A DNA stretch of 64,000 nucleotides from Oligoflexia bacterium (GCA_014376785.1 JACMQW010000018.1:9536-73535), one strand, 5' to 3'; positions 2,355 through 18,356 are shown, counted from the stretch's first letter. Program-made: numbers and translations. The notes: generated by a model from the letters alone, not told the origin.

Positions 2355-2984
2355 ATGGATCTATTGGTCGACTTCCTTCTGAACTTCTACGGTCCGACGC
2401 CTTATCTTTTGGTATTCGGAATTCTTCTGCTTTGCGGATTCGGAGTTCCTATTCCGGAAGACGTTGCGCTTTTCGCAGCCGGCTTGCTTGCGTATTACGG
2501 AGTGGTCGATCTTTGGGTGATGATCGCCGTAGGATTTGCAGGGGTTATGGCGGGTGATTCGATCATGTGGTATCTGGGCCACAAATACGGTCGTCGCCTG
2601 ATGAAAAAGTCATTTTTCCAAAAGCTCTTACCCGAAGAGCGTATCCAAATGGCATCGACGCGTCTGAATCGAAAGGGCGCAAAGCGACTGCTGTTCGCAG
2701 GTCGGTTCATGCCCGGGCTTCGCGCCCCTATTTATTTCACATCTGGTTTCTTGCACGTCCCGTTCTGGCGTTTTTTTATTATGGACGGCCTCGCGGCGAT
2801 GGTCAGTGTGCCGCTCATTATCGGCGCGGTCTTTCACTTCGGAGATGAACTCGACGTCGTGGTTCGGTGGATCAAAAAAATTGAACACGGAATTCTTTTC
2901 ATTATTTTCGGAGTTGCCGTCGTAGTAGGAACGAAATGGTGGCTGACTCACCGTCGAGCGCGCGCTGGAAACATTATCCCATGA
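2355..2984 (+). CDS. DedA/SNARE-associated family inner membrane protein
   Basis: 209 aa, polytopic. It carries the DedA signature GFGVPIPEDVALFAAGLLAYYG and GRFMPGLRAPIYFTSG. Confidence 0.75.
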   Translation: MDLLVDFLLNFYGPTPYLLVFGILLLCGFGVPIPEDVALFAAGLLAYYGVVDLWVMIAVGFAGVMAGDSIMWYLGHKYGRRLMKKSFFQKLLPEERIQMASTRLNRKGAKRLLFAGRFMPGLRAPIYFTSGFLHVPFWRFFIMDGLAAMVSVPLIIGAVFHFGDELDVVVRWIKKIEHGILFIIFGVAVVVGTKWWLTHRRARAGNIIP

Positions 2985-3943
2985 GAACCGCTTTCGTTCT
3001 CTTTGCGGGTTTCTCCTTGTTCGCTTGTTCTCCCCGCGCGGCAAACGTGCCGGAATCGAATGGCGTCCCACTTCCTCGCGCATCGGCCACCCCCCAGGTT
3101 CAGGAAGTCACCAGCGCATCTGCTTACGAAATCACGCAACTGTGCAAATCGCTGCAATCAGGAATCGAAAAGTATCAGTGGCGCGGTTTAAAAACCTGCG
3201 AAGGCATCCATTGGAAATCAGAAAGTCTTTCTGAAGAAGGCCGTCCGTTGATTTATGCCGAGTTCGGCCAACCATCGAGTTTGAATAAGACCCTAATCCT
3301 CTCCATGGTCCATCCGGACGAAATCACTCCTCTCTACCTCGGGTTTAAAATTGCGCATTACATTCGCGAGCGAGAGCTCGATTTAAAGGATGCCCACGTC
3401 ATCATCGCGCCGTTGGTAAATCCAGACGGATTTTTCAAACACCCACCCACTCGCATGAATGCCCGCGGCGTGGATGTGAATCGTAATTTCGATACGCCAC
3501 TGTGGCGGGAAAAAGCGCTGAAAGAATGGACGACCCGATTAGGAAAAAATCCCCGGCGCTTTCCCGGCCAGGAGCCGGCATCTGAGTCGGAAACTAAATT
3601 CCAAGTAGAGCTGATCGAACGATTCAAGCCAGCGAAAATTCTTTCGATCCATGCGCCACTGAATGTCACGGACTACGACGGACCCAATAGCCTCACGCTG
3701 GATCGCTTTCCGAAAGAATACGTTCACGCGTGTTATCAGCTCCGAAGTCGACTCCGCGCGAAGTCGACCGGGTATTTTCCAGGGTCGCTCGGAAATTTCG
3801 CCGGCATCGAGCAGGGGATACCCACGATTACTTTGGAGCTTCCATCAGCAAATCCCAAGCTCGCGGATGGTTTCTGGAAAAAGTTTCAGCCAGGAATACA
3901 CTCGATGATCCAATTTAAATTCGACCCTAGCGCGAAGAAATAG
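2981..3943 (+). CDS. Secreted M14-family zinc carboxypeptidase/amidase-like protein (MpaA/AstE-like)
   Basis: The ATG at 2981 overlaps the dedA stop (ATGA). The N-terminus MRTAFVLFAGFSLFACS has a signal and lipobox-like shape. Motifs are HPDE (HxxE zinc ligands) and DVNRNF (M14 substrate-binding Arg motif). Confidence 0.6.
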   Translation: MRTAFVLFAGFSLFACSPRAANVPESNGVPLPRASATPQVQEVTSASAYEITQLCKSLQSGIEKYQWRGLKTCEGIHWKSESLSEEGRPLIYAEFGQPSSLNKTLILSMVHPDEITPLYLGFKIAHYIRERELDLKDAHVIIAPLVNPDGFFKHPPTRMNARGVDVNRNFDTPLWREKALKEWTTRLGKNPRRFPGQEPASESETKFQVELIERFKPAKILSIHAPLNVTDYDGPNSLTLDRFPKEYVHACYQLRSRLRAKSTGYFPGSLGNFAGIEQGIPTITLELPSANPKLADGFWKKFQPGIHSMIQFKFDPSAKK

Positions 3944-4744: not shown

Positions 4745-5608
4745 TTAGGCCGCCTGCAATTCGACAGTAGGTAATTTTTTCACCTTGGCTAATTGTTCCA
4801 GTCGTAAAATTCTCTCACTCACGAGGGGATGCGCCTTACTGCCGGTGCTTCGTTCGATGGCGGCCTGAAGCGTGGTGAGTGCTTCTAAAAGAGAGGTGGC
4901 TTTGATTTGAAAAATTTTCATCGCTGTTTCATCGGCTTCAAATTCTTGGTCCCAGAGGAGCTGCCGCATGGTCATCCAAGTGAGTAAGGCAGGAATGATT
5001 CCCGCAACGAGTGAGAATGCGCCACCCAGATTTGCGTAACCACTCCAGTGCATTCCAATCAGCGTCGCCGCAGTCAGAACGGACGCGACAATAAAAGTAC
5101 CAATGGCCCGGAGCATGCGTTTTAAAAGGTGGTTTTGATTCAGATGGGAAAGCTCATGAGCAAAAACCGCTTCCAGAGCGGACGGGGCGAGTAGTTTTAA
5201 CGCGCCTTCCGAAGCGAAGATAACGGGGCGAAAAATTCCGCGTCCGAATGAAAATCCGGAGACGAAGACGTTCGGCAGCTTACCCGGTAAATCGGAGTCT
5301 GCGGCTGCGTAAAGCGATACTCCGTTCCATTCTCCGATGGCGCGGGCGAAAAACGCATGACGAAGCGTGAATGGACTGACCAGCAGGCTGAGGAAAACGC
5401 CGCCTGAAAATCCGCCTAGAATTCCCACCAAGACGAAGGCGAGTTTGAACGCGGGGAATACCGCTGGAAGCCTTCCCGCAAAGGTAACCCCGAGGGCTGC
5501 ACCCGCCGCGAGACCTGCGCTGGTAAGCAAGATCATGCTTCCGAAGAGGAGGACATTGCTCCATTGATTTCTTAAACGCCGAATAAAAGCTTGTTGAGTT
5601 GCATCCAT
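4745..5608 (-). CDS. M48 family zinc metalloprotease (HtpX-like), membrane-bound
   Basis: HELSHLNQNH is an HEXXH motif and a downstream EFEADE supplies the third ligand. Several TM helices are present. The start is placed at MDATQQ (5606-5608) because the longer ORF would overlap divergent meaB. Confidence 0.7.
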   Translation of the reverse strand: MDATQQAFIRRLRNQWSNVLLFGSMILLTSAGLAAGAALGVTFAGRLPAVFPAFKLAFVLVGILGGFSGGVFLSLLVSPFTLRHAFFARAIGEWNGVSLYAAADSDLPGKLPNVFVSGFSFGRGIFRPVIFASEGALKLLAPSALEAVFAHELSHLNQNHLLKRMLRAIGTFIVASVLTAATLIGMHWSGYANLGGAFSLVAGIIPALLTWMTMRQLLWDQEFEADETAMKIFQIKATSLLEALTTLQAAIERSTGSKAHPLVSERILRLEQLAKVKKLPTVELQAA

Positions 5609-5688
5609 GCTTTTTTCTATTCGGTGCGAAACGATGCGAGCGAGAGGGTAGAGATTGCCGACCCTTCGCCTTGTGATACGAAAGATCC

Positions 5689-6645
5689 ATGACTGCTCCG
5701 AATTACGCACGGGTCGAGGCTTTGATCACTGATATGCGCGCCGGCAAAAGATTGGCGCTGGCGAGGCTCATCTCTAAAGTTGAGAACCGGGATCCGGATC
5801 TCCATGAAGTGATGAGAAGAATCTATGCCCTTTCGGGCAAGGCTCAGATCTGGGGAATCACCGGTCCTCCCGGCGCCGGAAAGTCCACGATGGTCGATCA
5901 GTTTGCCATCGAGTTGAGGAAAAGAGGAAAGCGAGTCGCAATCGTCGCGGTCGATCCTTCTTCTCCCTTTACGGGGGGAGCGATCCTCGGGGATCGCATC
6001 CGGATGCAGAGGCATACCCACGACGAGGGCGTCTTCATTCGCTCACTCGGAACTCGCGGAAAGCATGGCGGCTTATCCCATGCGACGAAGGAAGTGGTGC
6101 TGCTTCTCGACTCCGCGGGATTCGATGTGATTTTGGTGGAAACGGCGGGGGTCGGCCAGACGGAGCTAGATGTCTTGAAGCTCGCTCAAACCGTCGTGGT
6201 GGCTCTCGTTCCCGAAAGTGGTGACTCGATCCAAGTTATGAAAGCCGGTCTCATGGAGATCGCAGACATCTTTGCCGTAAATAAGAGTGATCGACCTGAG
6301 GCGGATAAACTCGTGAAGGAGATCATCACGATGGTCGGACTGAACGACCACGATGAGAAAAGCTGGATGGTTCCGGTTAAGAAGACGGAAGCCACGCGCG
6401 GGGTCGGTATGGTCGAACTCCTGGATTCGATCGGGGAGCATCAAGCCTGGCTCGGCAAAACGGGAAATCGAGATGAAAAAGGTCGCCGGTTTCTGAAAGA
6501 AGAAGTTCTCGACATCTTAGTAGAGCGATTAGAGCGAAGTTTAGACGGTGCATTTGAGACACGTTCTGGAAAAGAGCTGCTCGAGCAGCTTTTGCGACGG
6601 GAAATTGACCCTTACTCGGCGGCGGATACCCTTTCCGGTCAGTGA
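5689..6645 (+). CDS. meaB: Methylmalonyl-CoA mutase-associated GTPase MeaB / ArgK (LAO/AO transport system ATPase)
   Basis: P-loop GITGPPGAGKST, VETAGVGQTE and NKSD G4 motifs are present. 318 aa. Confidence 0.85.
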   Translation: MTAPNYARVEALITDMRAGKRLALARLISKVENRDPDLHEVMRRIYALSGKAQIWGITGPPGAGKSTMVDQFAIELRKRGKRVAIVAVDPSSPFTGGAILGDRIRMQRHTHDEGVFIRSLGTRGKHGGLSHATKEVVLLLDSAGFDVILVETAGVGQTELDVLKLAQTVVVALVPESGDSIQVMKAGLMEIADIFAVNKSDRPEADKLVKEIITMVGLNDHDEKSWMVPVKKTEATRGVGMVELLDSIGEHQAWLGKTGNRDEKGRRFLKEEVLDILVERLERSLDGAFETRSGKELLEQLLRREIDPYSAADTLSGQ

Positions 6646-6854: not shown

Positions 6855-7059
6855 TGCTCTTTGACGGAAAGATCATTGTGGAAATGGTTTCACAGAGGCT
6901 CTCGGTCAAGCAGGGGTACAGCATATTCCTGCAAAAAATCTAAGGTGCGATTCTTCCGGGGGTAGCTCACGGGGGGGATGGAGTGGTCCATCTTCTGCCG
7001 GGTTGCCAAGGGGAGAGCACGGCCTTTAGCAGTACGTATCAAGCAAAAGGGTGTGGTGT

Positions 7060-7893
7060 ATGGGTCTTCGTATTAATACTAATATTCAGTCGTTAGCAGC
7101 TCAGCGTTCTTTAGGGATTAACTCCGGCGCACAAAAAGCAAGCTTAGAGCATTTGTCTTCCGGTTCCCGGATTGTTAGAGCTGCAGACGATGCCGCTGGA
7201 CTCGCGATCTCTGAAAAAATGAAGTCGCACATTCGTTCTTTAAACCAGGACATGCGCAACGCAAACGACGGGATCTCGATGATCCAAACGGCAGAAGGTG
7301 CGATGAACGAAACAGGGAACATCCTGACTCGTTTCCGCGAACTTTCCATCCAAGCTTCTTCGGACACCATCGGTGATACCGAACGGGGATTCATCAACAA
7401 AGAAGTGAAGCAACTCGGTTCTGAAATTGACCGGATTGCAAAATCGACCGAATACAACGGACGCAAGCTTCTCGCTGGAGAAGGCGATAAGCTTGAAATC
7501 CAAGTAGGTCTGAAAAACAACAAAGAGCTCGATCGTTTCCAATACGACGTCGCGGCAACGAACACCACGGCAGATGCTCTCGGTGTGGGTGGCCTTTCCG
7601 TCAACACGAAAGAAGAAGCGCAAAACAACCTCGATAAAATCGACGGAGCGATCTCGAAACTCTCTGGAAACCGCGCTGAAATGGGCGCACTTCAGAACCG
7701 GTTGCAATCTTCGATCTCTAACATGGCCGTCTACAATGAAAACTTGTCAGCCGGTAACAGCCGAATCCGCGATGTGGATATGGCTTCTGAAACTGCGGAG
7801 TTGACTAAAAACAACATCCTCACTCAAGCAACGACTTCAGTCCTCAGTCAAGCGAACCAGAACTCGATGCTGGCATTGAAACTCCTTGGATAA
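7060..7893 (+). CDS. fliC: Flagellin (copy 1)
   Basis: MGLRINTNIQSLAAQR...AADDAAGLAISEKM is the N-terminal D0/D1 segment, and LSQANQNSMLALKLLG is the C-terminal D0. AAGGG lies 8 nt upstream of the ATG at 7060. The track start at 7051 is a GTG. Confidence 0.9.
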   Translation: MGLRINTNIQSLAAQRSLGINSGAQKASLEHLSSGSRIVRAADDAAGLAISEKMKSHIRSLNQDMRNANDGISMIQTAEGAMNETGNILTRFRELSIQASSDTIGDTERGFINKEVKQLGSEIDRIAKSTEYNGRKLLAGEGDKLEIQVGLKNNKELDRFQYDVAATNTTADALGVGGLSVNTKEEAQNNLDKIDGAISKLSGNRAEMGALQNRLQSSISNMAVYNENLSAGNSRIRDVDMASETAELTKNNILTQATTSVLSQANQNSMLALKLLG

Positions 7894-8266: not shown

Positions 8267-9154
8267 TCAAGGACAGTGTAAAAATCCCTGAACGTTTTCC
8301 AAAATTATCGAACAGCCTCTCAAAAACTTCATACCTAACATTCCTTCGGCAGGCATGTCCTGAGAAGTCGGCTGAAGCCTCACATCCATTTTAAACTTTC
8401 TTCCCAGTAGCGTTGTTTCTATTTGAGTGAGTAAGCGAACTGACGATGGCTTCCCTGAAATGCCTCCAACTTTCTCGTGGGAGGTAATGGACTTGTTGAG
8501 AAGTTTTTTTCCCGCTCGCGACTGATTCCCAATCGCCGCATTGTCTGCACCTGAATCAACGAGGAATCTCACCGGCAGGTTGGCGATCTTTCCATCCACA
8601 ACGTAAAGGATCGTGTGGGTAACCTCGGGACTGATGGAGTGAATAGAAGTGAGTGGCGTGTAATCCTTTAGTGATGCGTGGGAAATGTCGCTGATGATTA
8701 ACGAAGGAACTTTCCCGAGATTGAGAGTGGCTGCCCCGCTTTTGGTGATCAGACTCTGGGGCGATAAGATTCCAGAAATGCCATAAACGCGGAATGAGCT
8801 AGGCAGGGAGGTGATCCAGACCTCCTTATTCTTGTAAACGAGAGTTTCGCCATTCGACGATTTCAGGGCCAGGTCGATCTTGGCCAGTGGGGCCTGGTCA
8901 TTAGCTCCGGTAGTGGCGGCCATCGTATTTTGAACGATATTGGATTCCGCCGCGAACCAGCTCGCGACAACGCTAAGCGAAGCTCCAGTGTCTACAAGGA
9001 AGATTCCCTTTTTGCCGTTGACGATAATTTCTACTGTCGGAGAGGCAAAACCTGCCTGATCGAGCAATGGATCAAAACTTAGCGCAAACTCAGATGCCCA
9101 AGCAGACGTACAACACAGGGTGAGGATAATACCGAATGGAAGAGTTGAGTCCAT
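8267..9154 (-). CDS. Secreted pepsin/retropepsin-like aspartic protease (two-lobed)
   Basis: Signal peptide MDSTLPFGIILTLCCTSAWA. Two catalytic motifs, FLVDTGASLS and FLVDSGADNA, are present. 295 aa. Confidence 0.6.
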   Translation of the reverse strand: MDSTLPFGIILTLCCTSAWASEFALSFDPLLDQAGFASPTVEIIVNGKKGIFLVDTGASLSVVASWFAAESNIVQNTMAATTGANDQAPLAKIDLALKSSNGETLVYKNKEVWITSLPSSFRVYGISGILSPQSLITKSGAATLNLGKVPSLIISDISHASLKDYTPLTSIHSISPEVTHTILYVVDGKIANLPVRFLVDSGADNAAIGNQSRAGKKLLNKSITSHEKVGGISGKPSSVRLLTQIETTLLGRKFKMDVRLQPTSQDMPAEGMLGMKFLRGCSIILENVQGFLHCP

Positions 9155-9217: not shown

Positions 9218-9843
9218 TTACGCCGGCAGAGTCATGATCAACGGATGCCCATCGGTAATGACCATCGTGTGTTCGTACTGTGCGGTGAGGTGACGTTTAT
9301 GCTTGGCAAGCGTCCAGCCACCGCCCGTATCGAAAACTTCTCGAGCTCCAGTGAAGAGAAAAGGTTCGATCGTGATGACCTGGTTCTTCTTCAGAACGCG
9401 TCGATCTTTCGGGTCGTAGTAACTCGGAATAAAACCAGGCGCTTCGTGCAGGGCTCTGCCCACTCCGTGGCTTCCGAGATTCTCGATCACGGTAAGCCGC
9501 TTCGGCGAGCTTCGGATTCGATGGCTCGACCGATTCCGCTGAGTAATGTTCCCGCGCGTGCTTCTTTCATCGCTAGCTTCAGCGCTCGCTGAGTCGCCAG
9601 GCAGAGGTTCTTTTTCAAATCAGATTCCGGTGGAATGACAAAAGACCCGCCGGTATCGGTAGCCGAGCGAGCCCCATAAAGTTCAAGAAACTTTTCGCCG
9701 ATCTGATCCAGCTCTCAAGTCGTCATCCCTGGTTCCAGCGATTTACCCATCAGCCGAAGGCAATTCGCAACGATGCGGCCGATTTTCTGAGGTGCGATTA
9801 AATCTTCTTCGGTCTCGATTGAAATGGAAAGACTGTAGCACAT
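9218..9843 (-). pseudogene. map: Methionine aminopeptidase type I (map) disrupted by an in-frame TGA and a frameshift
   Basis: From the ATG at 9841-9843 the gene reads MCYSLSISIETEEDLIAPQKIGRIVANCLRLMGKSLEPGMTT, then TGA at 9715-9717, then ELDQIGEKFLELYGARSATDTGGSF...ARRSG. The frame then shifts near 9491-9505 into LTVIENLGSHGVGRALHEAP...TMVITDGHPLIMT. The TGA sits where MAP has the Gly of PGVTTGELD, consistent with a GGA to TGA change. Confidence 0.7.
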
Positions 9844-9953
9844 TGCGCGAGCTGACGCTTCCCCTTCGGGCCACGACCGCGATTCGCGCGAGACCAACCA
9901 CTTTAAATCGGACACTGATTCGGACACTGATGCTTGATCGAAGTATGATCCGA

Positions 9954-10343: not shown

Positions 10344-11171
10344 ATGGGCTTAAGAATTTCGACCAATATTGCGGCTATGTCTGCGGCGCGAGCACTTTCC
10401 TCATCCTCAAACGAACAAGCAAAGAGTTATCAACGACTCGCTTCGGGTAACCGAATCACGTCTGCCGGCGACGACGCCGCTGGATTGTCGATCAGTGAAA
10501 AACTGAAATCACAAATCCGTTCCCTCGGACAAGCCGAAAGGAACGCGAATGACGGAGTGTCCTTCACGCAAGTCGCAGAAGGCGGCTTGAATGAAATCGG
10601 TAACATGCTCGTCCGGATCCGTGAACTCGGAATCCAAGCCGCATCCGATACGATCGGGGACACGGAACGTGGATTCGTGGATAAAGAAGTGCAGCAACTG
10701 AAGGGTGAAATTAATCGGATCGCAAACGTCACCACCTTTAACGGCACTCCGTTATTAAATGGTGAAGGCAAAAAGGATCTGAGCTTTCAGGTCGGCGCTT
10801 CCAAGGCGGACGCCATCGCGTTCAATCCAGAGAATTACAACGCGAGAACCGATAAACTGGGGATCGACGGAATCGACTACACGAGTTCGAGCGGTGCCCG
10901 AGATTCACTCGATAAAGTTGATGACGCGATTTCGAAAGTTTCTGGCTCACGGGCTGATCTCGGGGCTCAACAAAACAAGCTGCAAGCAACCATTTCGAAC
11001 TTAGCCATCCAAAAGGAGAATTATTCGGCCGCGAACAGTCGGATTCGGGATACCGATGTCGCTTCGGAATCCTCGAAACTAGTCAGCGGAAATATTCTGC
11101 AGCAAGCCGGCGTGTCCGTCTTGAGTCAGGCGAACATGGCTCCGCAGGCGGCCCTTAAGCTTCTGGGATAA
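10344..11171 (+). CDS. fliC: Flagellin (copy 2)
   Basis: MGLRISTNIAAMSAARALSSSS...GDDAAGLSISEKLKSQIRSLGQAERNANDG is the N-terminal segment and LSQANMAPQAALKLLG is the C-terminus. GGGAGAA RBS. It is paralogous to 7060-7893. Confidence 0.9.
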   Translation: MGLRISTNIAAMSAARALSSSSNEQAKSYQRLASGNRITSAGDDAAGLSISEKLKSQIRSLGQAERNANDGVSFTQVAEGGLNEIGNMLVRIRELGIQAASDTIGDTERGFVDKEVQQLKGEINRIANVTTFNGTPLLNGEGKKDLSFQVGASKADAIAFNPENYNARTDKLGIDGIDYTSSSGARDSLDKVDDAISKVSGSRADLGAQQNKLQATISNLAIQKENYSAANSRIRDTDVASESSKLVSGNILQQAGVSVLSQANMAPQAALKLLG

Positions 11172-11253
11172 ATAAAATCGCGAAGGGTATTACGAGTGTG
11201 CGCCCGAATCTCGGGGTAATAGTGCCCGCGAGGTTCACAATCTGAAAGCCCAG

Positions 11254-11291
11254 CCCCCGAAGCCAGTGCGCGGTTTCGGGGGTATTTTTGT
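11254..11291 (+). terminator. Rho-independent terminator after fliC2
   Basis: CCCCCGAA-gccagtgcgcgg-TTTCGGGGG is followed by TATTTTTGT. Confidence 0.65.
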
Positions 11292-11361
11292 GGGAACACG
11301 TCAAAAATTCCTCTAGTTTTTTCAGCCCTCCGCCGATGAGCCAGGTAGGGAGAAGTGTCAA

Positions 11362-11634
11362 ATGCAGAAGAAGAGTTCAAAGAGCGGTTCATTCATTCTC
11401 GGTTTCAGTTTCCTCTTTAGCCTCGGTTTAGCTTCCTGCGCGACTGAAGCTACAGACCTCACTGATTCTGTAGACCGTGAGCCCGCATCGATGCGCTCGG
11501 GGCGACGCTCTCAATTGAAAGACGACAAAGAAGAAAAACCAAGGGAATGCATGGTCGGGGAAACTCGGCAGGAAGACGGCGATTGCATGCGACCTTACAT
11601 GTTTGATCACCCGGCCCGTAAGGGCGGGCGTTAA
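11362..11634 (+). CDS. Small lipoprotein (hypothetical)
   Basis: MQKKSSKSGSFILGFSFLFSLGLASC carries the lipobox LASC. AGGGAGAAG RBS. 90 aa, charged mature part with two Cys. Confidence 0.45.
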   Translation: MQKKSSKSGSFILGFSFLFSLGLASCATEATDLTDSVDREPASMRSGRRSQLKDDKEEKPRECMVGETRQEDGDCMRPYMFDHPARKGGR

Positions 11635-11639
11635 TTTCT

Positions 11640-12845
11640 ATGGCCGAGCCGAAAGACAATTCGAAAAAAATTTGGTTTACGGTTGGGCTCGCAGTTAGCC
11701 TATCGGCGGCGACGTTTGCAAAACCACTCGGGAAAAGGATGGAGATGCCTTGGGGATCTCAGGAAAGTCCTGAACTCCTGTCTCCGATGAAATATTCTCT
11801 CGCAGCACTTCCTCCGGATGCGGAAGGAAATCGAAGCATCACCCACTGGGTGAAAAGAATTCCGTGGTCCGGTTCTTGGTGGCCTACATTTGCGGGCGGA
11901 ATCGCATACCGGTGGAGAAGTGGTGATAGTTGGGACTACGGTCTGGATGCAAATGCATTCAACTACCAACCCTACACGCTCGCCCAACTCGCAGCGATGA
12001 CTCCAGAAGAAATGAGTCGAAAGACTTCGCCGATCGAAAAGCTCGATATTTTAAATTTGCGGGCGGGAAATCCTTCTTCAGCCGATTATTACCGAAACCT
12101 GAAAATCCAACGCGCCTGGGCTTCAGACCGTGTTCGAGAAAATCCAGATCAGCGAGGCTTTCATGGACTTTGTAACGGACTCTCAAGCGCTTCTCTTGAT
12201 CTTCCTGAACCCAAAGCGGTGCAGAAGACAGTAAATTACACGGTGAATGGCCAAATCGTACCGATCACACTCCAGTTTGCTTCCGGTGATCTAAAAGCTC
12301 TCGCAACACATTACTACGCAATGAAAACATCGAACTACAGCGAATTTTACGTCGGCATGGCGAATTACAATTGCCAGTCTTCGGGATTTAATTGCCGCGG
12401 TTTAAATGCAGGCGCATTTCACGTCATTTTATTGAACACGGTAGGTCTCCAAGGGGATGGATTTGTGATGGACATCGAGCCGTCGAATGCGGTTTGGAAC
12501 TATGCGGTCGCGGGCTATGCCACGGCCTACAGTTCTTCTTTCCCCGTTCGTTCCGCGAACGTCGATCCGCGAGCGACCCATGAAATCGAAGTTCGGACGG
12601 ACGTGCATGTGATGGGCACGTCGAACCCGACTTTCAAACCGCAAGGTGCCCAATCGAACGCAAACATCGTCACGCATCATTACCACTACCGTCTGGAGCT
12701 CTCTGAAAATCAGGAAATTCTCGGCGGCACTTGGTTGGCGGATTCTGAGAGAATGGATACGGCTTGGAAGCTAAAGAATAAAATCTCGTTCGAAGGGGAC
12801 TATTCAGCCCTGAACGAAATTTGGCAGGCCCAACCTCGCAATTAA
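11640..12845 (+). CDS. Secreted hypothetical protein; possible Cys-His-Asp hydrolase/transglutaminase-like fold
   Basis: A signal-like N-terminus is present (KKIWFTVGLAVSLSAATFA). Conserved-looking patches are GFHGLCNGLSS, NAGAFHVILLNTVG and GDGFVMDIEP. 401 aa. Confidence 0.55.
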   Translation: MAEPKDNSKKIWFTVGLAVSLSAATFAKPLGKRMEMPWGSQESPELLSPMKYSLAALPPDAEGNRSITHWVKRIPWSGSWWPTFAGGIAYRWRSGDSWDYGLDANAFNYQPYTLAQLAAMTPEEMSRKTSPIEKLDILNLRAGNPSSADYYRNLKIQRAWASDRVRENPDQRGFHGLCNGLSSASLDLPEPKAVQKTVNYTVNGQIVPITLQFASGDLKALATHYYAMKTSNYSEFYVGMANYNCQSSGFNCRGLNAGAFHVILLNTVGLQGDGFVMDIEPSNAVWNYAVAGYATAYSSSFPVRSANVDPRATHEIEVRTDVHVMGTSNPTFKPQGAQSNANIVTHHYHYRLELSENQEILGGTWLADSERMDTAWKLKNKISFEGDYSALNEIWQAQPRN

Positions 12846-12890
12846 TGTTTTTTCACGAGAGTTCAACCGCCGGAAGCGTAGGATAGAGAG

Positions 12891-13997
12891 ATGGTGAAGC
12901 ATCCTGCCGCGATCCTGCTCGGAACGCTCCTATTTTTAGGAACCGTTTTCGCTGTGATCCGGGGGAATCTATTTCGTGGCGACGCATCAGGAAGTGGCCC
13001 CGCCCCCGCGAGCACGAACATAACGAAGTCTGCCGGAAAAGATTCTAACCATCCCGGTTCGGCTGAGCGGGTACGACGGTACTGTGCAAATCCCTACGAG
13101 GTGACTTGCGAGAATCCAACGCGGACGACGACTGATCCTACGGGGAGAGTCGATCTTCAGATTTCTGGAGAGGTTCGCGCGCTACGAGTTCTGAGAAAAA
13201 TCCTGACTTCTCACGCCGATTGGAATTCGAAACAGGTCGAAGACCAACTGGTAACGGAGATTTACACCGAGAAACGGGTAAAACGAATCGAGAGTGCTTA
13301 CCGGTGGGTGAAAGCGCAGCTCCACACGGTTATCGAGCGCCAAGATGCCTCTGTTTTTTCGGTCGAAGAGAAGCAAGCCATCCTCTCCCGTGTCGACCGT
13401 GTCGAATTGAATTTACCGCCTCCTGCTTCGAATTATGCAGATGCAGCAGATGTCTTTACGAAAAACTCTATTTATTATGAGCGGACCGAGACTGGGCAGA
13501 TGCGGCTTCGGGTGGGCGGTGCCTACCTTTTAAATATTTCTTCTTGGTATAACCTCGTCTTCTCACTTGCTCATGAATTCTCGCACGCCATTGATCCCTG
13601 CGAAATGGCTGCGGACGCCGTGGTGCCGACTGCATACCGAGAGCTCATTTCTTGTTTCGTCCGAACCGGGTGGGTCGACGGTGCCCGAAACACCTGTGGC
13701 GATAACGAGCAGGTATCCGAAGTCTTCGCCGACTGGATGGCTGCGGAAGTTGTGAGTTCTTCACTCGGCAATTCGGAAAAAGACTATTCGGGCGAGCAAC
13801 GAGTGCAGGCGGCGGTGAATTCCGTGCGAGACCTTTGTGAAGAAGCGGTGAGTTTGGACGTGCTCAGTACCCAAAATCATCAGACTCCGGCGATCCGTAT
13901 TGGAAAAATGTTCGGCAGAAATCCTCTCGTTCGAAAATCGATGGGATGCGAAAATACTCCCGCGGGCGACTATTGTGCTTTTAGTCCAAGGAAATGA
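12891..13997 (+). CDS. Secreted zinc metallopeptidase (HEXXH ... ExxAD, M13-like C-terminal arrangement)
   Basis: Signal peptide MVKHPAAILLGTLLFLGTVFAVIRG. HEFSH is an HEXXH motif, and a downstream EVFADWMA resembles the M13 ExxADxGG third-ligand motif. 368 aa. Confidence 0.6.
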   Translation: MVKHPAAILLGTLLFLGTVFAVIRGNLFRGDASGSGPAPASTNITKSAGKDSNHPGSAERVRRYCANPYEVTCENPTRTTTDPTGRVDLQISGEVRALRVLRKILTSHADWNSKQVEDQLVTEIYTEKRVKRIESAYRWVKAQLHTVIERQDASVFSVEEKQAILSRVDRVELNLPPPASNYADAADVFTKNSIYYERTETGQMRLRVGGAYLLNISSWYNLVFSLAHEFSHAIDPCEMAADAVVPTAYRELISCFVRTGWVDGARNTCGDNEQVSEVFADWMAAEVVSSSLGNSEKDYSGEQRVQAAVNSVRDLCEEAVSLDVLSTQNHQTPAIRIGKMFGRNPLVRKSMGCENTPAGDYCAFSPRK

Positions 13998-14488
13998 TCA
14001 TGAAAAAAAATGCTTCCATTCTTAATCCTCAGGTTTTTCTCCCGCTCTTATTACTCGGGTTTTTTGGATGTTCATCGACGGAAAAAAATTGGGTTCCAAG
14101 CGAGGTCTCACGAGATGACTTGCGGGAAAGCTCGGTAGAGGTTCGTTACACCCTCGCCCAAAACAACTATCGACTTCAGGTAGCGGCAGTGAATGGCGAA
14201 GTGAACGGTTATAATGGAGTGAATGAGCAACCCATCGAGCGCCAAAAAATTCGAAGCGTCTCCTATTTGAACTTTCTGAAGAAAGCATCGAGCATCCTCG
14301 ATTCTTTGAAAAAGAAGATGAAGAACGAAGAGATCAAAGATTGTAAGACACCATTCCTCCTAACTGTGCAGAGGTCCGGCGAGCCGTTGGAAAAAATAGC
14401 AGGATGCCGAAGCCATGATTCGGAAGGGCAAGTGGGTCGGCTGATTCAAGAGGGTGAATTTCTTTTCTACTCTCCGCCAACGAATTGA
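13994..14488 (+). CDS. Lipoprotein (hypothetical), translationally coupled to the metallopeptidase gene
   Basis: ATGA overlap with the upstream stop. MIMKKNASILNPQVFLPLLLLGFFGCSS carries the lipobox FFGC. 164 aa. Confidence 0.55.
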   Translation: MIMKKNASILNPQVFLPLLLLGFFGCSSTEKNWVPSEVSRDDLRESSVEVRYTLAQNNYRLQVAAVNGEVNGYNGVNEQPIERQKIRSVSYLNFLKKASSILDSLKKKMKNEEIKDCKTPFLLTVQRSGEPLEKIAGCRSHDSEGQVGRLIQEGEFLFYSPPTN

Positions 14489-14539
14489 CACTTCGGTTTT
14501 CCCGCCGGATTCCGATAAGTCATCAAAGGGAACTGGCCG

Positions 14540-14911
14540 ATGAAACTGAATATCTCCGCAGCCTCTCCAACAACTTTTGAAAGAATACGTCCCTCTGAAG
14601 CAGGAGGAGACGCACCAAAACGTGAAAGTAAGAACTCGTTTTCGTCTCAGGATGAACAAAAAGAGGCGGAAGAAACTCCCGAAGAAAAAGCGGAGCGATT
14701 AGCCGCCGCAGTTTCTGATTTCGGTTCGGCACTTCCCTCTGAAGCGTCTGATCTGAAGGCCGAAGTGCAGGGAGCAGGGCCGGGACTTCGCGTGACGTTA
14801 AAAGATGGCCGCGGGGCCCTTATTCGGCAGTTCACAGGCGAGGAATTCCTACGTCTTCGTGAAGCAGCAACCGGGACGAACCGCGGAAGCCTTCTCGACA
14901 AGAAACTTTAG
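14540..14911 (+). CDS. FlaG-like small protein
   Basis: 123 aa. The C-terminus RVTLKDGRGALIRQFTGEEFLRLREAATGTNRGSLLDKKL resembles the FlaG family end (...GEVIRQIP.EE.L......GLL.DKK.). Confidence 0.45.
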   Translation: MKLNISAASPTTFERIRPSEAGGDAPKRESKNSFSSQDEQKEAEETPEEKAERLAAAVSDFGSALPSEASDLKAEVQGAGPGLRVTLKDGRGALIRQFTGEEFLRLREAATGTNRGSLLDKKL

Positions 14912-14927
14912 TGTTACATTCGTCGAC

Positions 14928-15680
14928 ATGAAAGTCGTCGTCATTTCAGACATTCACATTCGCGACGAGCAAGATCCTCTCTACCACTTGCTTCTTAAGA
15001 TGATCTTGAAAGAAGCGAACTCGGGTGATGTACTCGTCCTTGCGGGGGATATTTTTGATTTTCTGGTGGGACGTCAGCCGACCTTGATGGCTCGTTACGA
15101 GGGTTTTTTCCGGTTGCTTCGAGAGAAGTGCGAAGCTGGTGTGAGAGTGACTTACATCGAGGGAAATCATGATTTTCACTTGGAGTCTTCCTTTAAAGAA
15201 ATCCCCGGCGTTTCCATTCAGCCAGTAGAAGCGGAATTCCAAATTGGACTGAAAAAGATCTATGTCGCCCATGGTGATTTGGTCGATCAGGAAGATCATG
15301 GTTATTTATTTTTGCGGCGGTTTTTCCGGAGCGTGTTCATCAAATGGGCGGCGTTAGTTCTTCCATCGCCTGTTGTGGAATGGATTGGAAATCGCTCTAG
15401 TCGCGCATCGAGCAACTTGAAACCTCGAATTCCGACGACGCTCTCCGAAGCACGACTAGAAAAACTTCGTTCGATCTACCGAGGTTTTGCACGGGAGAAA
15501 TTTCATGACGGATTCGATGCGGTGGTGCTGGGCCATTGTCATGACCTAGATGGAGCGAACTTTATCGAAGAGGGTCGGATGGGAAGCTACCTGAACGTGG
15601 GCTATCCACGGTCCCATCATTCTTACGTCGTTTTCGACGATGTGAACGGCCTCCACCGCCGCGCACTCCATTCCGATTGA
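14928..15680 (+). CDS. Calcineurin-like metallophosphoesterase (LpxH-like UDP-2,3-diacylglucosamine hydrolase family)
   Basis: First ATG at 14928 (MKVVVISDIHI). Motifs are DIH, LAGDIFDF, EGNHDFH and GHCHD. The longer ORF from 14805 overlaps the FlaG-like gene. Confidence 0.65.
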   Translation: MKVVVISDIHIRDEQDPLYHLLLKMILKEANSGDVLVLAGDIFDFLVGRQPTLMARYEGFFRLLREKCEAGVRVTYIEGNHDFHLESSFKEIPGVSIQPVEAEFQIGLKKIYVAHGDLVDQEDHGYLFLRRFFRSVFIKWAALVLPSPVVEWIGNRSSRASSNLKPRIPTTLSEARLEKLRSIYRGFAREKFHDGFDAVVLGHCHDLDGANFIEEGRMGSYLNVGYPRSHHSYVVFDDVNGLHRRALHSD

Positions 15681-16604: not shown

Positions 16605-18194
16605 ATGCGTAAATTTTTCATTTGTTCGGCGGTGACCATCCTGGTTTTGATAGGCATCAGTTCGTTCTTTGAGCCGCGAATTTTATGGACCTTAGTTTTT
16701 TTCGGTCCGCTCATTCTTTTGGGCGTCCAAGATATGCGCCAAACGCGGCACGCGATCCGCCGGAACTTTCCGCTGCTCGGGCATGGTCGATACTTCCTGG
16801 AGATGCTACGGCCAGAAATTAACCAATATTTCGTGGAATCTAATATTGACGGGAGACCGTTCAATCGAAACAAACGCTCAATGATCTATCAGCGTGCGAA
16901 GGGCGAAGTGGACACGCTACCGTTCGGCACGCAGCTGAATGTTTACGAAGAGGGCTACGAATGGATCAATCATTCGATCGTGCCGAAAACTCCGTCCCGC
17001 GAAGTGCCGCGAGTCCTGATCGGCGGACCCCTCTGTAAAAAGCCTTACTCAGCCTCGCTTTTTAATATTTCGGCAATGAGCTACGGATCGCTTTCTAAAA
17101 ATGCAGTGCTCGCACTGAATGAGGGGGCTCGACTCGGCGGATTCTATCACAATACCGGTGAGGGAGGACTGAGCTCATACCACCTCGAAAAAGGCGGAGA
17201 CATCTGCTGGCAAATTGGAACCGGTTACTTCGGATGTCGTGATGAAAAAGGGTCTTTTTCTTCAGAGAAATTCAAAGAGCGCGCTCACCTCGGGCAAGTA
17301 AAATTAATCGAAATCAAGCTTTCGCAGGGAGCCAAACCAGGACATGGCGGCATCCTTCCTGCGGGGAAAGTAACTCTGGAGATTTCGAAAATTCGAGGAG
17401 TTCCGATGGGGGAGGACGTGATTTCTCCGCCGGCCCATTCGGCCTTCTCGACTCCGATCGAACTCCTTCAGTTTGTACAAAGACTCAGAGAACTATCCGG
17501 CGGAAAACCGGTTGGCTTCAAGCTCTGTCTCGGTAAGAAAAGGGAGTTCATGGCGATATGCAAAGCCATGATCGAGACGAAAATTTTGCCTGATTTTATC
17601 ACGGTCGACGGGGCAGAAGGAGGAACGGGAGCCGCTCCGCAAGAGTTTTCGGATTCAGTCGGCACCCCTCTCAATGAAGCTTTGATTTACATTCATAATT
17701 GCTTAGTCGGACTCGGACTCCGCCAAGACATCCGAATCATTGTTTCGGGAAAAATTTCTACTGGATTCAATATCGCGCAAAAACTCGCGCTCGGTGCGGA
17801 CCTCTGCAACGCCGCTCGAGGAATGATGTTTGCGATCGGTTGTATCCAAGCCCTTCGTTGCAATACCAACGAATGCCCCACCGGTGTGGCCACTCAGAAT
17901 CCCGATCTGGTGAAGGGACTTGTCGTCGGAGATAAAGCACCCCGAGTCGCGCGGTATCATAAAACAACGCTTCATAGTTTTCTTGATGTACTGGGCGCGG
18001 CGGGTCTCAGCGAACCTTCGGAACTTCGCCCATGGCACATCCAACGGCGAGTCGATTCGGTGACTGTGAAGCATTACGGAGAAATTTATCGTTATGCCGA
18101 GCCAAACTCGATACTGAACGGTGAGATTGCATCGGAGTATTCCCGCGCCTGGTCTGCAGCTGCGGCTGATTCATTCACGTCTAAGAATTCCTGA
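16605..18194 (+). CDS. FMN-binding glutamate synthase family protein (GltB domain-2-like) with N-terminal TM helices
   Basis: Characteristic segments are KLSQGAKPGHGGILPAGKV, ISPPAHSAF and FITVDGAEGGTGAAPQEF. 529 aa. Confidence 0.8.
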   Translation: MRKFFICSAVTILVLIGISSFFEPRILWTLVFFGPLILLGVQDMRQTRHAIRRNFPLLGHGRYFLEMLRPEINQYFVESNIDGRPFNRNKRSMIYQRAKGEVDTLPFGTQLNVYEEGYEWINHSIVPKTPSREVPRVLIGGPLCKKPYSASLFNISAMSYGSLSKNAVLALNEGARLGGFYHNTGEGGLSSYHLEKGGDICWQIGTGYFGCRDEKGSFSSEKFKERAHLGQVKLIEIKLSQGAKPGHGGILPAGKVTLEISKIRGVPMGEDVISPPAHSAFSTPIELLQFVQRLRELSGGKPVGFKLCLGKKREFMAICKAMIETKILPDFITVDGAEGGTGAAPQEFSDSVGTPLNEALIYIHNCLVGLGLRQDIRIIVSGKISTGFNIAQKLALGADLCNAARGMMFAIGCIQALRCNTNECPTGVATQNPDLVKGLVVGDKAPRVARYHKTTLHSFLDVLGAAGLSEPSELRPWHIQRRVDSVTVKHYGEIYRYAEPNSILNGEIASEYSRAWSAAAADSFTSKNS

Positions 18195-18356
18195 AGCGGA
18201 GAACTTGATCATCCCTCCCGGACCGCGTATTCGAAGGGAAACACATTCTGAGTCGAAGGAAGTGGGTGAAAATCCCACACTGTCCCGCAACGGTGATGAG
18301 ACGACGCTCTCTCAGTCCGGTCTACGACAAAGAATTCATCCCGAGGAGGAATCGCT

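Follow-up and report, generated by a model that had tools for sequence, protein, structure and literature searches.

A probable composite operon in an Oligoflexia flagellin locus that joins a GP42-type enzyme pair to a single-domain M13-like peptidase pair

Introduction

A run of four genes, here called g1 to g4, lies at positions 11362-14488 of a 64,000-nucleotide (nt) stretch of DNA from an Oligoflexia bacterium (GCA_014376785.1, JACMQW010000018.1:9536-73535; the whole stretch is hereafter the window), and parts of this run recall systems described elsewhere. The transglutaminase (TGase) GP42 of Phytophthora sojae belongs to a family known from oomycete plant pathogens, and members have also been reported in marine Vibrio. 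GP42 (PDB 3TW5) is the only solved member of Pfam family PF16683, 'Transglutaminase elicitor', and is unusual among papain-like enzymes in that its catalytic His stands directly after the catalytic Cys, in a 'CH' motif (PMC10318531). M13 peptidases such as neprilysin, ECE-1, PepO and Zmp1 are 630-700 aa long and combine two domains, PF01431 and the mostly helical PF05649 (Peptidase_M13_N), which encloses the active site. In the potempin/KLIKK-peptidase pairs of Tannerella forsythia and in serralysin-inhibitor operons, a lipoprotein or periplasmic protein of ~100-150 residues adjoins a secreted peptidase; potempins are small outer-membrane lipoproteins that are co-transcribed with the peptidases that they inhibit (PMC9890683). 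In Bdellovibrio bacteriovorus, 92 of the 140 mapped attack-phase promoters share the motif TTAAG-N16-CCGATA, which is attributed to FliA (sigma-28) and drives proteases, surface proteins and flagellar genes (PMC3627812).

Here we report that the four genes of the window probably form a composite operon of two pairs with separate histories, situated in a variable slot of the flagellin/attack-phase locus of Bdellovibrionota (Oligoflexia). Pair A, composed of g1 and g2, is long-standing in a block with the order MeaB-fliC-fliC-g1-(cargo)-TGase-FlaG-like-metallophosphatase, while pair B, composed of g3 and g4, is a two-gene cassette that is found across Bdellovibrionota, elsewhere in most genomes, and that probably moved into the flagellin locus in the window's lineage. 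A literature search returned nothing on either pair in Bdellovibrionota, and nothing relevant for Bdellovibrio together with transglutaminase or neprilysin.

Results

The open reading frame (ORF) table places all four genes on the + strand: g1, encoding a small lipoprotein of 90 aa (11362-11634); g2, a 401-aa transglutaminase-fold Cys enzyme (11640-12845); g3, a 368-aa M13-like zinc endopeptidase (12891-13997); and g4, a 164-aa lipoprotein (13994-14488; likely real start ATG 14000). The spacing is 5 nt between g1 and g2 and 45 nt between g2 and g3, with a 4-nt overlap between g3 and g4. Read directly from the N-termini, every product carries an export signal, namely the lipobox LASC with Cys26 in g1, a Sec-type signal (...SLSAATFA, followed by KP) in g2, one strongly hydrophobic helix at residues 6-23 with no lipobox in g3, and the lipobox FFGC with Cys26 in g4, which bears out a preliminary description of this DNA as holding four consecutive same-strand genes for exported proteins. 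The same description had the last two genes overlapping by ATGA; this holds if the first ATG of g4 (13994) is used and fails with ATG 14000, which leaves a 2-nt gap, is preceded by the better of the two Shine-Dalgarno sequences (AAGGA at 13987) and aligns with the starts of the homologs. The commonest g3/g4 arrangement among relatives is the 4-nt overlap, and g3 and g4 are predicted to be tightly coupled translationally whichever start of g4 is used.

The proposal that the four genes constitute one conserved module did not survive comparison with related loci. One genome per species was scanned for g3, giving 106 relatives of which the best 80 were taken as loci (76 informative, 51 informative core). 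Searching these 80 loci with all window proteins recovered g4 only, and no g1, g2, flagellin or FlaG-like gene. Six relatives from g2's own clade were looked up (L081-L084, L086 and L087), and all lie in one flagellin block, ordered (M14, M48)-MeaB-flagellin-flagellin-small lipoprotein-TGase-115-133-aa protein-metallophosphoesterase, where the small lipoprotein is homologous to g1 and the 115-133-aa protein to the window's FlaG-like ORF. Every member of the close g2 clade whose locus was examined is flagellin-linked, and P0026, from the other TGase clade, is not; the seven other TGase loci, including L091 with its divergent 541-aa TGase, lack g3-g4. The window shares the outer synteny of the related loci and has two extra segments, the first being an aspartyl protease plus a decayed methionine aminopeptidase between the two flagellins, which are adjacent in related loci, and the second being g3-g4 between the TGase and the FlaG-like gene. 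The two closest relatives of g3 (59-60% identity; L088 and L089) stand in the order fliC-fliC-g1-g3-g4-FlaG-like-metallophosphoesterase with no TGase, and their g3 and g4 likewise overlap by 4 nt. The presence of g3-g4 in the flagellin locus is thus common to three genomes of the window's lineage, and all four genes occur together in the window only, among the loci examined.

The slot between g1 (or fliC_b, the second flagellin gene) and the TGase/FlaG-like gene is taken up by unrelated cargo in other genomes, with an ABC transporter in L083 (3350-5878, - strand), CorA and glutaredoxin in L091 (2824-4105), and a helix-turn-helix protein with unknown proteins in L090 (2895-5918). Judged from these arrangements, the slot seems to be variable, an apparent hotspot of gene gain and loss. 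It is very improbable that the four genes are instead one co-evolved kit of cooperating secreted hydrolases, as their shared strand, tight spacing and uniformly exported products might suggest. A kit of this sort would also suit the single promoter-like motif upstream, the lack of any terminator-like site between g2 and g3 or where g3 meets g4 in a terminator scan, and the company of g1 with g3-g4 in L088 and L089; against it, neither g1 nor g2 occurs in any of the 80 g3 loci, g3-g4 is absent from the seven TGase loci, the other genomes with g3-g4 in the flagellin locus lost or never had the TGase, and the full set of four is confined to the window. By the synteny, the single-kit view is largely refuted.

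Two copies of an 8-bp direct repeat, CCGCCGGA (12867-12874 and 14501-14508, + strand), flank g3-g4 on both sides, with a rough chance expectation of ~0.03 for two 50-nt regions. The repeat was considered as an insertion scar and rejected, as neither L088 nor L089 has it and chance may account for it.

Pair B has a wide distribution of its own. Nearly all g3-bearing records are labelled Bdellovibrionota or member groups, including the cultured Bdellovibrio sp. HCB strains and Bacteriovorax stolpii, and the labels of a few are generic, out of date or probably the result of mis-binning. An iterated profile located a g4-like ORF directly 3' of g3 in 49 of the 76 informative loci, often with a 4-nt overlap, and the pairing extends to g3 paralogs at only 20-29% identity. 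The cassette usually follows an ABC-transporter block and precedes tdk, an arrangement from which the Bdellovibrio sp. HCB strains differ. In 15 of the 51 informative core loci g4 is absent after g3, and tdk or other genes follow, with the catalytic residues of g3 all kept. These g4-less loci are scattered on a crude neighbour-joining tree, which points to several losses.

The g3 protein has the fold of the M13 catalytic domain. Its N-terminal helix is either a signal anchor or a signal left uncleaved, and is followed by a linker with a predicted local distance difference test (pLDDT) value <50 at residues 28-48 of the structure model. In the alignment, the zinc motifs are HEFSH (13572-13586, + strand) and E277xxxD281 (13719-13733, + strand); H228-E-x-x-H232, D235 and E277-x-x-x-D281, the last in the context E-x-F-A-D-W, are invariant in 35 of 35 sequences, so that the earlier identification of the 368-aa protein as a short M13-like peptidase is upheld. 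Also invariant is H330-x5-R336, whose spacing is that of H711/R717 in neprilysin, its possible counterparts. Of eight Cys residues, six are invariant and two nearly so, and because these conserved residues could form up to four disulfides, g3 probably resides in the periplasm.

Sequence comparison places g3 far from the M13 enzymes described to date, with which it shares 11-13% identity over the ~270 residues that align. No match to the Pfam M13 models PF01431 and PF05649 was obtained at E <= 1, nothing was found in NCBIfam, and nothing in the PDB even with a 35-sequence profile. The two-domain M13 architecture is not present: at 368 aa g3 is about half as long as these enzymes, and the domain that encloses their active site is missing. 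Among 102 closer homologs no Pfam domains were found. When 1.84 billion cluster representatives were searched with a profile, 1,172 g3-related clusters (50% identity) were retrieved, 52 of them at E <= 1e-30 and many of 400-600 aa; ten distant relatives that were scanned received no Pfam assignment, and one distant relative gave a sub-threshold match to PF01431 (E 0.0037). We conclude that g3 is an M13 catalytic domain standing alone, with the second M13 domain absent, and that it presents a known fold in a new architecture, drawn from a large family outside the reach of current models. In L060, L062 and L063, distant g3-like peptidases are tandemly duplicated, ~1.5-2 kb apart, and in L062 a gene for a small secreted protein lies between the two copies.

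A further difference from the M13 peptidases is the pairing of g3 with a dedicated small lipoprotein. Two Cys residues of g4, C117 and C138, are invariant in the alignment. Pfam gave no match to g4, the best NCBIfam hit was TcaA (E 0.0027; 16.6 bits, cut-off 550) and the best PDB hit had E 0.04, neither being significant; a profile search likewise brought nothing of use. Like the potempin and serralysin-inhibitor units, g3-g4 is a two-gene unit with overlapping or nearly abutting codons (PMC9890683), and the adjacency expected of a cognate lipoprotein inhibitor is present in the predicted genes, with the small lipoprotein adjoining the peptidase by a 4-nt overlap or a 2-nt gap. The gene order is reversed, potempin genes standing upstream of their peptidases whereas g4 stands downstream; in addition, g4 has no sequence similarity to any solved inhibitor and is dispensable in several lineages. 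By this analogy, g4 is most likely a cognate inhibitor or latency factor of g3, while a role as an indispensable self-protection inhibitor is weakened because g4 has been lost repeatedly beside a catalytically intact g3. That same pattern of loss would better suit an accessory factor than an essential antidote, and g4, a lipoprotein in the core clade, is no more than a signal-peptide protein in the distant clade; both points could speak for g4 as an outer-membrane adaptor, activator or substrate recruiter of an inner-membrane-tethered g3 (compare NlpI with Prc), or as a substitute for the missing lid domain. We regard this as a serious rival, if a somewhat unlikely one, given that a small exported protein tightly coupled to a peptidase is the classical inhibitor pattern (PMC9890683) and that, as a lid substitute, g4 would set ~140 aa against the ~330 residues of M13 domain 2, to which it has no sequence relation.

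Within pair A, g2 was assigned to PF16683 with 68.6 bits (cut-off 25; E 5.5e-19), a domain that all 33 of its relatives carry, and matched GP42 with E 1.3e-7 alone and E 1e-37 as a 33-sequence profile. The protein thus has the GP42 fold and belongs to a known family, contrary to the suggestion that it might represent an undescribed one. Its key residues in the alignment are Cys178 (12171-12173, followed by Asn179), His261 (12420-12422) and Asp278 (12471-12473), all on the + strand. C178 aligns with C290S of the crystallised GP42 mutant, i.e. with the catalytic Cys C290, and conservation of the Cys and His in homologs, which the preliminary description had put forward as a check, was found: C178 is kept in 32 of 33 relatives (15 of 15 in the close clade), H261 in all 33, and D278 in 32 of 33. 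H261 is also present in GP42. The proposed Cys-His-Asp enzyme of transglutaminase or papain-like type was therefore right as to superfamily and Cys, but the triad is not that of GP42, in which His adjoins Cys. The residue after the catalytic Cys is Asn in g2, and is Asn in nine, Ala in three, Gly in one and His in two members of the flagellin-linked clade, while the CH motif occurs in 15 of 16 members of the second bacterial TGase clade. Compared with GP42, g2 also has Ala289 in place of the Pro of the Pep-13 region, and it differs in its bacterial host, its flagellin locus and the small lipoprotein gene before it.

Transglutaminase chemistry is uncertain for g2, as the catalytic His of GP42 is missing and H261 is itself missing in a distant relative; on the sequence evidence, the enzyme class of g2 is settled. 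That the clade is no longer a transglutaminase at all, and comprises proteases, deamidases or non-catalytic binding proteins instead, is a doubtful alternative, since C178, D217, N256, H261, D278 and the W286-N287 pair are conserved in the clade, which argues that some catalysis is retained, and since H261 is shared with GP42. We conclude that g2 adds a new member to a known family, one whose active site is altered and whose genomic setting is notable. The distant relative is the 541-aa divergent protein of L091 (4281-5906, + strand), which is encoded directly upstream of the FlaG-like gene and matches the family profile with E 7.5e-32; it keeps the Cys, has Glu next to it, and has Thr in place of His261. 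As this protein was missed by the word-indexed homolog search, the flagellin-linked clade has more members than the 15 listed. The signal peptide of this clade (g2 residues 1-28, window 11640-11723; homologs P0002-P0015) is unusually conserved, with the pattern K-x-WFT[VIL]G-x-A-x-SLSAATFA; conservation so far above the normal hints that it may serve beyond Sec targeting.

The small lipoprotein g1 matched nothing in Pfam or NCBIfam, and the PDB offered no usable hit. Its place is taken by homologs in L081, L083, L084, L086, L087, L088 and L089, with a weaker one in L091 (E 3e-5), and their alignment shows a lipobox, a conserved C-terminal Cys-hairpin motif, C-x2-GE-x5-G-x-C, and an ending in GGR. 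Neither Gln nor Lys is conserved among the homologs, and g1 is kept without a TGase in L088 and L089.

Upstream of g1, a FliA/sigma-28-type promoter-like motif, TCTAG-N16-CCGATG (11312-11338, + strand), ends 23 nt before the g1 ATG. It fits the consensus of the B. bacteriovorus FliA attack-phase regulon, including the 16-nt spacing (PMC3627812), although here, in the metagenome-assembled genome of an uncultured Oligoflexia bacterium, the promoter is a predicted one. We accept the motif on its conserved position only: a -10-like CCGA[TA][AG]AG lies 21-23 nt upstream of g1 in eight of nine loci. The -10-like motif recurs 21-25 nt upstream of the FlaG-like gene in nine of nine loci, represented in the window by the sigma-28-like TCCGATAAG (14511-14519, + strand) 21 nt before the FlaG-like ATG, and 108-138 nt upstream of fliC_b in six of eight. 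A sigma-70 promoter scan gave no + strand site in the region, and a weak hairpin lies inside the 3' end of g1 (11614-11629). It can reasonably be inferred that g1-g2-g3-g4 are co-transcribed from an attack-phase promoter, which is plausible on these predicted signals.

The shared -10 motif before fliC_b, g1 and the FlaG-like gene, together with the place of the TGase downstream of two flagellins and upstream of the FlaG-like gene in eight loci, at TGase identities down to ~29% or lower, raises the possibility that pair A is flagellum-specific, with g2 modifying or cross-linking flagellin, the sheath or the basal region and g1 serving as its anchor or substrate. A Sec-exported enzyme reaches the filament only if the flagellum is sheathed, as in Bdellovibrio. 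We consider a flagellum-specific pair A unlikely, in that unrelated cargo sits in the same slot elsewhere, g1 persists without the TGase in two genomes and has no conserved Gln or Lys, and FliA promoters of B. bacteriovorus drive most attack-phase genes and not flagellar genes alone (PMC3627812).

Between fliC_b and g1 lies an intrinsic-terminator-like hairpin (11253-11283, + strand; 12-bp stem with 8 GC pairs, followed by a T-run), which is the second hairpin of a conserved two-hairpin 3' untranslated region (UTR) of fliC_b at ~11196-11285 (fold z = -2.96). The window, L088 and L089 share this 3' UTR almost unchanged, and parts of it are conserved in L083, L084 and L087 as well, a degree of conservation that exceeds the need of a terminator alone. 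An Rfam scan of the module region, the two-hairpin 3' UTR included, gave no match.

The genes around the run are those of the conserved locus. The 275-aa flagellin gene fliC_b (10344-11171, + strand; Pfam Flagellin_N E 1.4e-38, Flagellin_C E 2.1e-23) anchors it, and its position is filled likewise in L081-L084 and L086-L091. Further upstream are M14 (2936-3943), M48 (4745-5710, - strand), MeaB (5689-6645) and the first flagellin gene (7051-7893), identified by window synteny. In the insertion between the flagellin genes, the aspartyl protease gene occupies 8267-9154 (- strand) and the methionine-aminopeptidase-like gene 9218-9927 (- strand), the latter broken twice, by a stop codon in frame after '...EPGMTT' and by a frameshift ahead of its C-terminal 90 aa. 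At the downstream edge of the variable slot, an ORF of 123 aa (14540-14911, + strand) had been described as FlaG-like. JGI gives the name 'FlaG/YvyC family' to several of its homologs, in keeping with that description, but its own match to Pfam FlaG (PF03646) is weak and below the cut-off (E 0.04; 14.5 bits, cut-off 23.8), spanning positions 7-100 of the 101-position model, and the model matches just one of seven orthologs. The FlaG-like gene is followed, here and in every related locus, by an LpxH-like metallophosphoesterase gene (14928-15680, + strand; Pfam Metallophos E 1.3e-12); its ORF as listed begins at 14805, yet the domain begins at residue 42, and scores against the NCBIfam LpxH models were under their cut-offs.

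A tyrosine recombinase gene (Phage_integrase plus SAM-like N domain; 1426-2340, + strand) lies at the left edge of the syntenic block, and is likelier an XerC/D-type housekeeping gene than a mobile-element marker because it has the same position in L088. Farther downstream, an AdoCbl (cobalamin) riboswitch (18245-18335, + strand; Rfam 50.7 bits against a gathering score of 50) comes directly after a glutamate-synthase-domain gene (16605-18194). The labels on the record conflict, the NCBI protein names reading 'Cryobacterium sp.' and nr 'Oligoflexia bacterium'; the Cryobacterium label looks mis-assigned, since the gene content and all relatives point to Bdellovibrionota.

Discussion

In the composite operon that we propose, the FliA-type promoter upstream of g1 would transcribe all four genes and so give motile/attack-phase expression. 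g3 would be an active periplasmic zinc endopeptidase whose N-terminal helix and flexible linker hold it at the inner membrane, and it may accept larger substrates than classical M13 enzymes, as the domain enclosing the active site is absent. g4 would bind g3 and control it or, alternatively, position it at the outer membrane. g2 would form a Cys178 acyl-enzyme on envelope or flagellar-sheath proteins, with cross-linking, deamidation or cleavage as the outcome, and its catalytic arrangement would differ from that of GP42 because the Cys-adjacent His is missing. On the sequence, pair A most likely supplies a Cys enzyme of the attack phase that is exported through Sec and acts on proteins of the envelope or sheath; by analogy with described systems, pair B is most likely a membrane-tethered periplasmic endopeptidase controlled by its lipoprotein.

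Several observations weigh against this proposal. In the searches of Pfam, NCBIfam and the PDB, g4 resembles no known inhibitor, and nearly a third of the informative core loci have a catalytically complete g3 with no g4 after it. As g3 fails the Pfam M13 models, the label 'M13-like' rests on fold and motifs. g2 has Asn179 where GP42 has its catalytic His, and its distant relative in a flagellin locus lacks H261 as well. The degenerate FliA pattern gives one match in the 64-kb window against 0.62 expected, so that a single match is not significant, and the unrelated cargo in the slot means that position there is no proof of a flagellar role.

Two further readings, which we judge improbable, go beyond the proposed composite operon. 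In one, g3-g4 may be a new, Bdellovibrionota-specific two-component protease system in which a lid-less 'mini-M13' is held latent or targeted by its dedicated lipoprotein, and which may act on the prey or on the predator's own envelope in the attack phase. In the other, g1 may be a tether resembling Braun's lipoprotein, and the His-less GP42-fold enzyme would process the invariant C-terminal GGR of g1 or cross-link it to the sheath, filament or peptidoglycan.

Taken together, our analysis shifts attention within the run, in that its less-known component is the peptidase-lipoprotein pair and not the 401-aa protein; g1 and g4 are both uncharacterised. General principles are unchanged, and the gain is mainly a sharper annotation, to which the peptidase contributes more weight than the transglutaminase. 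A bacterial clade of the GP42 family that is stable in the flagellin loci of predatory-type bacteria, downstream of an attack-phase-type promoter motif, and that has a changed active site, offers a setting in which to ask about the function of these enzymes in bacteria. The g3 protein, for its part, indicates that the M13 catalytic domain exists alone, free of the enclosing domain that is thought to restrict M13 enzymes to small peptides. If g4 inhibits or targets g3, predatory bacteria, which must shield their own envelope from their own hydrolases, would have in this pair a new system of protease control.

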